From IMG/VR virus record IMGVR_UViG_2617270964_000016, positions 1 through 37,320 of that record: 37,320 bases of DNA; one strand, written 5' to 3'. Below the pieces are notes generated by a model. It worked only from the letters and a program-made list of their open reading frames with translations. It made no database searches and was not told where the DNA came from. Source of the DNA: a virus. Lineage: Duplodnaviria > Heunggongvirae > Uroviricota > Caudoviricetes. The translations under genes were made by a program, and so were the position numbers. Of this stretch, positions 11,094 to 12,558 are shown piece by piece. How positions within the stretch are numbered: position 1 is the stretch's first letter; every line of letters starts with the position of its first letter.

Positions 11094-11582
11094 ATGAGTC
11101 TTTTGAATGACGTTCAGAAATTCATTGAAGCCCATCCGGGATGTACTTCCGGAGACATTGCGGATGCTTTTGCAGGTTACTCACGGCAGCGCGTTCTGCA
11201 GTCAGCAAGCAAGTTACGTCAGAGTGGGCGTGTGGCTCACCGTTGTGAAGGAGATACACGCAGACATTTCCCGCGCCTGACTGAGAGAGCGCAGGAACCG
11301 GAACCACAACCAGTTCGAGAAACCAGACCTGTGCGCAATTTCTATGTCGGCACTAACGATCCACGGGTGATTTTGTGCCTGACCCGCCAGGCTGAAGAAC
11401 TGGAGTCCAGGGGCTTATACCGTCGTGCTGCAACCGTGTGGATGGCGGCATTCCGTGAAAGCCACTCCCAGCCAGAACGAAACAATTTTCTGGCGCGTCG
11501 TGAGCGGTGCTTACGGAAAAGCAGCAAGCGCGCTGCATCGGGTGAAGAGTGGTATCTGTCAGGGAATTACGTGGGGGCTTAA
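11094..11582 (+). CDS. PerC-family-like transcriptional regulator (putative)
   Basis: Motif ...LESRGLYRRAATVWMAAF...RRERC... resembles the PerC/Pch-type signature (recalled). ATG 11094 with AGGGGG Shine-Dalgarno; the track starts at GTG 11088. Confidence 0.4.
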   Translation: MSLLNDVQKFIEAHPGCTSGDIADAFAGYSRQRVLQSASKLRQSGRVAHRCEGDTRRHFPRLTERAQEPEPQPVRETRPVRNFYVGTNDPRVILCLTRQAEELESRGLYRRAATVWMAAFRESHSQPERNNFLARRERCLRKSSKRAASGEEWYLSGNYVGA

Positions 11583-12235
11583 TGAGTAATAAATATTGCC
11601 AGGCGCTGGTGGAACTGCGGAACAAACCAGCCCATGAACTGAAGGAAGTGGGCGATCAGTGGCGCACGCCGGACAACATTTTCTGGGGAATTAACACCCT
11701 GTTTGGCCCGTTTGTTCTGGATCTGTTTACTGACGGTGATAACGCCAAATGTGCCGCGTATTACACGGCGGAAGATAACGCGCTGGCGCATGACTGGTCA
11801 GAACGTCTTGCGGAGCTTAAAGGTGCTGCCTTTGGTAATCCCCCGTACAGCCGCGCCAGTCAGCATGAGGGGCAATACATCACCGGCATGCGTTACATCA
11901 TGAAACATGCCAGTGCCATGCGTGATAAGGGCGGGCGCTATGTTTTCCTGATCAAAGCTGCCACCAGCGAAGTGTGGTGGCCGGAAGATGCGGACCATAT
12001 TGCTTTTATTCGCGGGCGTATTGGTTTTGAACTGCCTGCCTGGTTTATCCCGAAGGATGAGAAGCAGGTGCCGACAGGCGCTTTCTTCGCTGGTGCTATT
12101 GCTGTTTTCGACAAGACCTGGAAGGGACCGGCAATCAGCTACATCGGGCGCGATGAACTTGAGGCATGTGGTGAGGCCTTTCTGGCGCAGGTTCGCCAGC
12201 AGGCAGAAAAACTGGTCAGGGAGATGGCGGCATGA
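11582..12235 (+). CDS. Phage N6-adenine DNA methyltransferase (Dam-like, orphan)
   Basis: NPPY catalytic motif (...AFGNPPYSRA...). ATG 11582 overlaps the upstream TAA. Confidence 0.7.
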   Translation: MSNKYCQALVELRNKPAHELKEVGDQWRTPDNIFWGINTLFGPFVLDLFTDGDNAKCAAYYTAEDNALAHDWSERLAELKGAAFGNPPYSRASQHEGQYITGMRYIMKHASAMRDKGGRYVFLIKAATSEVWWPEDADHIAFIRGRIGFELPAWFIPKDEKQVPTGAFFAGAIAVFDKTWKGPAISYIGRDELEACGEAFLAQVRQQAEKLVREMAA

Positions 12236-12558
12236 CGACGTTAACTCAATGCCAGCAGCAGGTGCTGGATATGCTGATTTCTTATCAGAAAGAACGTGGC
12301 TTCCCGCCAACCAATCAGGAGGTGGCAACCATGCTGGGATACCGTTCAGTGAATGCAGCGGTGGAGCATCTTCGCGCACTGGAGAAAAAAGGCGTCATCA
12401 CGATAAAGCGTGGCGTGGCCCGGGGGATAACGCTTCATACCGCGATGAAGGACGACGACAGCGAGGCGGTCGGGATTATCCGCTCACTGCTTGCCGGTGA
12501 GGAAAACGCAAGGCTGCGTGCAACCCACTGGTTACATGAGAGGGGCCTGAAAGTATGA
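12232..12558 (+). CDS. LexA-N-terminal-like DNA-binding domain protein (no peptidase domain)
   Basis: 108 aa with winged-helix segment ...GFPPTNQEVATMLGYRSVNAAVEHLRALEKKGVITIKRGVARGI.... Translationally coupled. Confidence 0.45.
   Translation: MTTLTQCQQQVLDMLISYQKERGFPPTNQEVATMLGYRSVNAAVEHLRALEKKGVITIKRGVARGITLHTAMKDDDSEAVGIIRSLLAGEENARLRATHWLHERGLKV

Follow-up and report, generated by a model that had tools for sequence, protein, structure and literature searches.

A yfdN, dam and small lexA-like gene trio as a probable accessory block in the early operon of an SfV-like temperate phage

The genes described here have their closest known counterparts in phage SfV, whose record lists in the same order orf39 (replication), orf40, dam, orf42, orf43 (rusA) and onward to Q. 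Allison et al. (2002, J Bacteriol 184:1974) reportedly confirmed by experiment that the product of SfV orf-41 is a Dam methylase. A further copy lies in CPS-53 (KpLE1) of E. coli K-12, where yfdN (b2357) occupies the same place as SfV orf40, between the replication gene, which it directly follows, and the methylase gene. The K-12 record lists YfdN as 'uncharacterized protein', and its PGAP name is 'PerC family transcriptional regulator'. PerC of EPEC pEAF and PchA-E of EHEC prophages each have a single domain and a length of about 90-104 aa (90 aa for PchE), and they are encoded as independent loci. Pch proteins are encoded by prophages and activate ler (PMC5931665; PMC4764244), Pch displaces H-NS (PMC4764244), and PchE, according to one report, has hardly any effect on LEE (PMC6265319). 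The literature that we found holds direct tests of Pch proteins on LEE1/ler and none of YfdN function, and a literature search for a phage LexA protein consisting only of the N-terminal domain returned nothing relevant. For the methylase, M.EcoVT2Dam belongs to the same Pfam family and is reported to target GATC (PMC6602927).

Judged by its sequence, the window, by which we mean the entire 37,320 nucleotides analyzed, is an SfV-like temperate phage: it matches SfV at 96% identity across positions 4968-18238. The three genes yfdN, dam and a small lexA-like gene lie at 11094-12558 on the + strand, at the positions where the original prediction had placed three ORFs, and formal HMM searches (PerC, Dam, LexA_DNA_bind) bear out its ORFs and family calls. 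The relevant features are:

7666..8340, - strand: cI-type prophage repressor with a Peptidase_S24 domain; SfV cI is at the syntenic position
9583..9771, + strand: IsrK-like and C4 antisense RNA genes, a P4/P1-type RNA immunity element (Rfam RF01394, 61.2 bits; RF01695, 80.7 bits)
10285..11091, + strand: replication initiation gene (HTH_36 and DnaD-like); its stop codon is 2 nt ahead of the yfdN ATG
11094..11582, + strand: yfdN-type gene; the ATG at 11094 gives 162 aa, a GTG at 11088 gives 164 aa
11582..12235, + strand: orphan phage N6-adenine DNA methyltransferase gene (Dam type, 217 aa), with FGNPPYS at aa 84-90 and NPPY at nt 11837-11848
12232..12558, + strand: gene of a small LexA-like protein (108 aa) that lacks an S24 peptidase domain
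12555..12944, + strand: rusA Holliday-junction resolvase gene (PF05866, 56.4 bits); its start codon overlaps the stop codon of the lexA-like gene

The full order is replication gene, yfdN, dam, small lexA-like gene, rusA, kilA-N gene, DUF968 gene and Q. The trio thus sits between the replication gene and Q, in agreement with the nin-like placement predicted from the sequence. The explanation that best accounts for the whole, and that we consider probable as a whole, is that the trio is a standard accessory block which an SfV-type lambdoid temperate phage of E. coli and Shigella carries in its early-right (pR) operon. Stop and start codons overlap at every junction (TAATG, ATGA and ATGA), and the trio is translationally coupled. 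A consensus promoter scan of the window, which is a crude tool, found no sigma-70-like promoter on the + strand at 8200-13277 and no terminator-like site on the + strand at 9653-14199; a terminator-like hairpin lies at 9640-9653 in the C4/IsrK region, and the C4/IsrK element precedes both the replication gene and the trio. Since its cI-type repressor has a Peptidase_S24 domain, the prophage is probably SOS-inducible. Because the three are coupled early-operon genes without promoter- or terminator-like sites of their own, and because the S24 cI-type repressor and the C4/IsrK element lie upstream, they are most likely expressed on infection or induction and not in the stable lysogen. Infection, or cleavage of the S24-type cI in the SOS response, would lead to joint production of the three proteins, and a quiet lysogen would make none of them.

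The same observations bear on a different reading of the locus, lysogenic conversion by a 'moron'. Here the trio would be expressed in the lysogen, where YfdN would cross-activate host or pathogenicity-island genes as Pch does on LEE, the methylase would reprogram host epigenetics and the LexA-like protein would modulate the SOS regulon. This reading has in its favor that YfdN matches the PerC family above threshold, that Pch proteins are themselves ler activators carried by prophages, that yfdN was deleted as a precaution in K-12 when Pch was tested on ler-lacZ (PMC5931665), and that a putative dam promoter is annotated within orf40 in the SfV record. A moron of the classical kind brings its own promoter and terminator, whereas the trio is translationally coupled within an early operon, has no detectable promoter or terminator of its own and lies downstream of the S24-type repressor and the C4/IsrK immunity element. 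It was on these grounds that the suggestion of regulatory cargo cross-activating host genes in the lysogen found no support. As to the internal dam promoter of the SfV record, the equivalent hexamers in the window (TGGCGC ... TACGGA) match poorly and were not called by our scan. Little effect on LEE has been reported for group 2 and 3 Pch proteins, and the YfdN architecture, described below, is a different one. Furthermore, about half of all E. coli genomes contain the block, and LEE is missing from most of these. In lysogens of ST131, prophage Dam homologues were reported to be inactive or untranscribed under the conditions tested (PMC4659465). Overall, we regard lysogenic conversion as very unlikely.

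As a discovery, the block carries small weight, as few sets of prophage genes are more common in E. coli. Apart from the possible role of the small LexA-like protein, the finding is ordinary: the combination of yfdN, a phage Dam methylase and a small LexA-like gene is already known and annotated in about half of complete E. coli genomes (2681 of 5426 in our count), and the PGAP annotation of a 99.9% identical prophage carries the same three names. There is nothing new in these family names. New details are modest and comprise the N-terminal winged helix of YfdN, the C-terminal hairpin of the LexA-like protein, dam as a dispensable insert, and purifying selection. Compared with Hafnia and Citrobacter relatives, dN/dS is 0.05-0.21 across all three genes (0.14-0.21 for yfdN), so they are real genes under purifying selection. 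Decay of the block into prophage debris without function is therefore extremely improbable. It would fit the K-12 CPS-53 methylase, which is truncated after NPPY, and the many database entries that are frameshift fusions or fragments. Against it, all three ORFs are intact and coupled in the window, the low dN/dS holds across genera, and the same genes occur in inducible, plaque-forming phages, among them SfV and several Stx2 phages; selection and intactness thus contradict decay. ORFs on the antisense strand (e.g. 11798-12379, - strand) were regarded as mechanical artefacts, the + strand being the coding region under selection. The distribution of the block is mosaic. Hafnia prophages keep the entire gene order, in Citrobacter prophages the PerC-type gene is directly followed by the LexA-like gene without dam, and SfIV has been reported to lack the methylase (PMC3851460). 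Going by these gene orders, dam is a dispensable insert, and yfdN and the lexA-like gene stay adjacent when it is missing.

YfdN of the window differs in three residues from its K-12 counterpart (161 of 164 identical, 98%); the GTG at 11088 is the start chosen by PGAP and in K-12. The PerC-like motif in the original prediction holds up, with GLYRRAATVW and RRERC both present and a match to Pfam PerC PF06069 at aa 98-149 of 36.1 bits, above the gathering score of 22.6. Additional matches were to phrog_1324 'transcriptional activator' over the full length, weakly to the MarR-type phrog_1687 at aa 6-68, and below threshold to the ANR family (23.6 bits, cut-off 32); a PDB sequence search with YfdN gave no meaningful match. 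The AF2 model consists of a winged helix, a disordered linker and a three-helix domain:

11100..11273, + strand: predicted N-terminal winged-helix-turn-helix domain of YfdN (aa 3-60)
11361..11537, + strand: predicted C-terminal PerC-like three-helix domain of YfdN (aa 90-148), bearing GLYRRAATVW and RRERC

In the N-terminal part, helices at 3-13, 19-25 and 31-44 precede a beta hairpin at 47-60 (pLDDT about 90), and the C-terminal helices span 90-105, 109-122 and 126-148. Foldseek matched the N-terminal domain to winged helices of the ArsR/SmtB, MarR and BlaI/MecI types at an rmsd of 1.5-2.5 A, with weak E-values of 0.05-0.2. YfdN has in common with PerC and the Pch proteins the helical PerC core and a GxYRRAA motif. 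However, its identity to PchE (Sakai) is 40% over 52 aa only, and unlike the single-domain PerC and Pch proteins, YfdN is 162-164 aa long because a winged helix and a disordered linker come before the PerC-like part, and its gene lies inside the early operon. Because of this two-domain architecture and the limited identity to PchE, YfdN is not a Pch-type protein. It may bind DNA by its N-terminal winged helix, and its PerC-like helical domain could, by analogy with Pch, relieve H-NS-type silencing; AT-rich phage or horizontally acquired promoters would be the most likely targets.

The methylase scores 156 bits with Dam PF05869 (cut-off 28.1) and 255.6 bits with the equivalog model TIGR01712 phage_N6A_met (cut-off 97.05). 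Together with the NPPY motif and the lack of an adjoining nuclease partner, these matches confirm the orphan NPPY adenine methylase that had been proposed. Around it lie yfdN, the lexA-like gene, rusA, the kilA-N gene and the DUF968 gene. No cognate nuclease is among these neighbors, which are retained where dam is missing, and in a PADLOC run on the window only methyltransferase models (MTase_II and oMTase) matched. DUF968/HNH was rejected as a nuclease partner, because DUF968 persists in relatives without dam. The window enzyme is identical to SfV Dam at 215 of 217 positions (99%), and its first 89 aa are identical in YfdM of K-12 CPS-53, which has 91 aa and ends right after NPPY. VT2-Sakai orf32 belongs to the same Pfam family and is 31% identical; with 217 vs 175 aa, the window methylase is 42 aa longer than the VT2 enzyme, partly as a C-terminal extension. 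To our knowledge, this phage family is unrelated in sequence family to host Dam, and a PDB sequence search with the methylase found no relative. From the near-identity to SfV Dam and the activity of M.EcoVT2Dam we infer that the 217-aa protein methylates adenine in GATC. It would act on fast-replicating phage DNA, and progeny genomes would leave the cell fully methylated, shielded from restriction enzymes that cut at GATC and without having to rely on the host's limiting Dam. GATC sites in the phage give no clear signal of avoidance or enrichment (141 observed vs 145 expected from base composition and 192 from a Markov model). Host E. coli and Shigella carry their own Dam. Since GATC is neither depleted nor enriched and the hosts have Dam of their own, we can only infer a benefit of the methylase to the phage.

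The small LexA-like protein occupies the position of SfV orf42. LexA_DNA_bind PF01726 matches aa 1-65 with 69 bits and a Pfam search of the 108 aa gave no Peptidase_S24 match, consistent with the prediction of a protein that has only the LexA N-terminal domain. In phmmer the E. coli LexA N-terminal domain (1lea) was matched with E = 7e-16, and 35 of 69 residues (51%) are identical. The AF2 model (mean pLDDT 82.7) has two parts, joined by a flexible linker:

12232-12435, + strand: predicted LexA-type winged helix of the LexA-like protein (aa 1-68)
12454-12540, + strand: predicted helical hairpin of the LexA-like protein (aa 75-103), conserved in relatives

Foldseek superimposed the model on 3jso and 1lea at an rmsd of 1.0-1.2 A, and on chains of LexA-DNA complexes at 1.0 A; the architecture is kept in relatives of 38-48% identity. 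E. coli LexA (1lea, 3jso) has a hinge (Ala-Gly) cleavage site, an S24 peptidase/dimerisation domain and a Ser/Lys dyad. All of these are missing from the phage protein, which therefore cannot respond to RecA*; in place of the LexA C-terminal part it carries a helical hairpin, conserved and about 30 aa long. The label 'LexA repressor' that PGAP gives to some copies is an over-call, because the protein ends at aa 108, has no Peptidase_S24 and scores 70.6 bits with TIGR00498, below the cut-off of 110.95. Repressors of the BlaI/MecI type follow the same plan of a winged helix and a short helical C-terminal module. They appeared as weak Foldseek matches and have no sequence relationship to the LexA-like protein, so that the likeness is an architectural analogy for dimerisation only; by this analogy the hairpin possibly serves dimerisation.

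Within the early-operon explanation, this protein would dimerise through its C-terminal hairpin and repress by binding CTGT-type half-sites; RecA could not inactivate it, and it would appear exactly when host LexA has been cleaved. Two further readings of its function have to be weighed. It could be a phage-specific regulator with a LexA fold that acts on phage operators unrelated to SOS boxes or by protein-protein contact and has no effect on host SOS, which we consider possible. The gene is always found beside rusA, the kilA-N gene and the DUF968 gene in a phage early operon, and the TIGR00498 score under the cut-off also speaks for this reading. In the recognition helix, all members of the close family have V in place of E44 of LexA, and wider relatives differ at positions 42-45; because of the E44 replacement the DNA specificity may differ from that of LexA. 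On the other hand, the protein retains S39, N41, A42 and E45 of the recognition helix, is 51% identical to the LexA N-terminal domain and fits DNA-bound LexA at 1.0 A. In the family alignment S39 and N41 are invariant and E45 nearly so, while residue 42 is mostly A, with S or T in several. Based on these residues, SOS-box binding by the protein is plausible. A search of the whole window for CTGT-N8-ACAG with at most one mismatch yielded 13 sites vs 12.6 expected and hence no enrichment, and the sole exact site, at 9326, lies within a coding region. The second reading is that of a RecA-proof SOS-box repressor, which would be made from the early operon just after cleavage of host LexA, dimerise through its own hairpin and re-close LexA-controlled promoters during lytic growth. 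We consider this second reading unlikely.

At this locus, the labels 'PerC family' and 'LexA repressor' should not be taken to imply LEE activation or an additional LexA of the host. Very widespread and under purifying selection, the small LexA-like protein bears on the question whether common prophages interfere with the SOS response when they are induced. If the protein were a RecA-proof repressor, the promoters re-closed would be those of SOS functions, colicins and LexA-controlled antirepressors of rival prophages, and the phage would thereby counter both the SOS programme of its host and co-resident prophages.

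Three overlapping reading frames occupy the plus strand of the window at 11094-12558, exactly where the original prediction had placed a PerC/Pch-like regulator, an orphan Dam methylase and a LexA-N-domain-only protein as regulatory cargo, and the motifs quoted for them (GLYRRAATVW, RRERC and NPPY) are all found in the translations:

11094-11582, plus strand: yfdN, 162 aa, or 164 aa when started from the GTG at 11088 as in the public annotation
11582-12235, plus strand: phage N6-adenine methylase, 217 aa
12232-12558, plus strand: LexA-like protein, 108 aa

A formal family search, proposed as the refutation test, returned matches for all three families, so the family calls of the prediction hold. 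The stop codon of the replication gene lies 2 nt upstream of the yfdN ATG, the junctions of the trio read TAATG, ATGA and ATGA with each start codon overlapping the preceding stop codon, and the rusA start codon overlaps the stop codon of the lexA-like gene. All three genes are under purifying selection, with dN/dS values of 0.14 (yfdN), 0.05 (dam) and 0.14 (lexA-like gene) against a Hafnia prophage, as is yfdN against a Citrobacter prophage (0.21).

Stx2c-converting phages match the block at 99% identity, and many further phages of E. coli and Shigella at 98%. Half of the window's first 24 kb aligns at 96% with Shigella phage SfV, whose record has the same gene order: cI, cro, orf36, orf37 ('immunity region'), orf38, orf39 (replication), orf40, dam, orf42, orf43 (rusA-type), orf44, orf45 and Q. 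The 1465-bp block occurs in 2681 of 5426 complete E. coli genomes, at least 80% of it in 1610 of these. In PGAP annotation the three are labelled 'yfdN: PerC family transcriptional regulator', 'phage N-6-adenine-methyltransferase' and, for the last gene, either 'LexA family transcriptional regulator' or 'LexA repressor'. Hafnia prophages keep the full order of replication gene, PerC-type, Dam, LexA-like, RusA, KilA-N, DUF968 and Q. In Citrobacter prophages (L007-L009, 3523-4321) dam is missing, and the LexA-like gene comes straight after the PerC-type gene, overlapping it by 8 nt; conservation is therefore stronger for the pair of yfdN and lexA-like gene than for all three genes. SfIV is also noted to lack the methylase of SfII and SfV (PMC3851460). 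Fusion calls of PerC with RusA among the E. coli database entries hint at copies without both middle genes. The block is thus mosaic, with dam as a dispensable insert.

In crude scans of the plus strand, neither a sigma-70-like promoter (8200-13277, consensus scan) nor a terminator-like hairpin (9653-14199) was found, and strong terminator-like sites occurred only after the Q gene. Upstream of the trio lie a CII/CP76-type gene and the following elements:

7666-8340, minus strand: cI-type repressor with a Peptidase_S24 domain
9583-9659, plus strand: IsrK-like RNA (Rfam, 61.2 bits)
9684-9771, plus strand: C4 antisense RNA (Rfam, 80.7 bits)

Both RNAs fall within the mechanical ORF 9223-10059 (Ash family; SfV orf37 'immunity region'), and the isrK 3' end coincides with a terminator-like hairpin at 9640-9653. 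Together they make up an RNA immunity element of P4/P1 type that precedes the replication and nin-like genes, and the label in the SfV record agrees with this. With no promoter-like or terminator-like site of its own in these scans and with a repressor and RNA immunity upstream, the trio thus sits inside the early-right operon, behind two immunity layers. From the crude scans and synteny we infer that it is expressed upon infection or induction and not in the stable lysogen. Neither virulence cross-activation nor epigenetic cargo acting in a lysogen, both proposed earlier, finds support in this operon context.

An ORF at 1-474 (plus strand) carries a SocA/Panacea antitoxin domain (66.3 bits) and is followed by an ORF of 182 aa (496-1044, plus strand) with no Pfam or PADLOC match. 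The two may be a toxin-antitoxin pair at the prophage's left end (1-1044), where the close relative L001 has a hypothetical gene and a YafO-family toxin.

The PerC-like call for YfdN holds for a part of the protein: Pfam PerC (PF06069) matches with 36.1 bits (gathering score 22.6), over aa 98-149 only. The full-length match is phrog_1324 'transcriptional activator', and a match to the ANR family is sub-threshold. An AlphaFold2 model with 20 homologues as input (mean pLDDT 77.8, folded domains about 90 each) predicts three segments:

aa 3-60: N-terminal winged helix
aa 64-84: disordered linker
aa 90-148: C-terminal three-helix domain

Foldseek matches the N-terminal domain to winged helices of the ArsR/SmtB, MarR and BlaI/MecI types at 1.5-2.5 Å, with E-values (0.05-0.2) that are weak, as is usual for some 60 residues; a MarR-type PHROG also matches aa 6-68. 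Sakai PchE (90 aa) aligns only with aa 94-145 (40% identity). Given this restricted match and the extra winged helix and linker, we reject YfdN as a plain Pch. Pch acts at the LEE1 promoter by displacing H-NS (PMC4764244), and little effect on LEE has been reported for PchD and PchE (PMC6265319). On our reading, YfdN is probably a DNA-targeted relative in which a winged helix is coupled to a PerC-like anti-silencing module. YfdN of the K-12 CPS-53 remnant is identical to the protein at 161 of 164 positions; its gene was deleted as 'the K12 unique PerC homologue' ahead of Pch tests that left out YfdN itself (PMC5931665).

The methylase matches PF05869 Dam (156 bits) and the NCBIfam equivalog TIGR01712, phage N-6-adenine-methyltransferase (255.6 bits, cut-off 97), and is identical to SfV Dam at 215 of 217 residues. 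Experiments in the paper on the SfV genome (Allison et al. 2002, J Bacteriol 184:1974) reportedly confirmed orf-41 as a Dam methylase, and the paper is said to state that Shigella hosts possess their own Dam. VT2-Sakai orf32 belongs to the same compact phage family PF05869 (31% identity), and GATC specificity is cited for M.EcoVT2Dam (PMC6602927). The GATC frequency across the window is unremarkable. Prophage Dam homologues of an ST131 lysogen were reported inactive or untranscribed under laboratory conditions (PMC4659465), which fits expression during lytic growth only. On general phage biology, the most likely role of the enzyme is full GATC methylation of fast-replicating phage DNA. K-12 YfdM (L004 6113-6388) is 100% identical to residues 1-89 and ends immediately after NPPY, so the CPS-53 copy is a dead methylase beside an intact yfdN. 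A DUF968 protein (13775-14770, plus strand, 271.9 bits) has a C-terminal HNHc_6 match barely over threshold (26.9 vs 26.6), and its gene adjoins Q in all relatives examined. As it is kept there with or without dam, it was rejected as nuclease partner; the methylase is therefore a true orphan, as predicted.

The small protein matches LexA_DNA_bind (PF01726) over aa 1-65 (69 bits) and nothing else of substance, and a phmmer search of PDB sequences hits the DNA-binding domain of E. coli LexA (E = 7e-16; 35/69 identical to the LexA N-terminal domain, ungapped). It has neither cleavage site nor S24 domain, which bears out the description as a LexA DNA-binding domain only, so that, judged from its sequence, it cannot respond to RecA*. 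The 'LexA repressor' label that PGAP puts on some copies (WP_000210144.1, L001 14139-14465) is over-specific, since the S24 domain is absent and the score of 70.6 with TIGR00498, the model of full-length LexA, falls short of the 110.95 cut-off. The AlphaFold2 model (mean pLDDT 82.7) comprises:

aa 6-68: winged helix, superposing on DNA-bound LexA (3jso) at 1.0 Å
aa 71-75: floppy linker
aa 75-87 and 93-103: helical hairpin

Relatives at 65-100% identity come from enterobacterial prophages only. An exhaustive profile search added relatives at 38-48% identity (104-135 aa) in which both winged helix and helical C-terminal part are retained, with A97 and L101 invariant. Since LexA relies on its C-terminal domain to dimerise, the conserved hairpin is the natural candidate to take over this role; matches in architecture, though weak, to BlaI/MecI-type repressors agree with that. 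The same search returned many metagenomic proteins of 140-350 aa (P0248, P0256, P0257, P0259 and others) with two tandem LexA_DNA_bind stretches and no S24 domain, which look like covalent 'dimers' of the winged helix, an alternative way to manage without the LexA C-terminal domain.

Two roles are possible for the protein: a RecA-proof repressor of SOS boxes, made once the host has lost its LexA, or a regulator specific to the phage that reuses the LexA fold. Among the recognition-helix positions S39, N41, A42, E44 and E45, which we take to be DNA contacts from the LexA-DNA structure, S39 and N41 are invariant in the family and E45 nearly so; several members have S or T in place of A42, and the close family has V where LexA has E44. 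The phage shows no enrichment of SOS-box-like sites. One such site, CTGTAATATTTTACAT (17442-17457, plus strand), has an AT-rich spacer and one right-arm mismatch and is intergenic, with the lysis genes on one side and the HNH/terminase genes on the other; such sites overall are at chance level. Our literature search found no paper testing an N-domain-only LexA-like phage protein. The trio itself is a long-annotated and extremely common part of SfV-type prophages, including the K-12 CPS-53 remnant.
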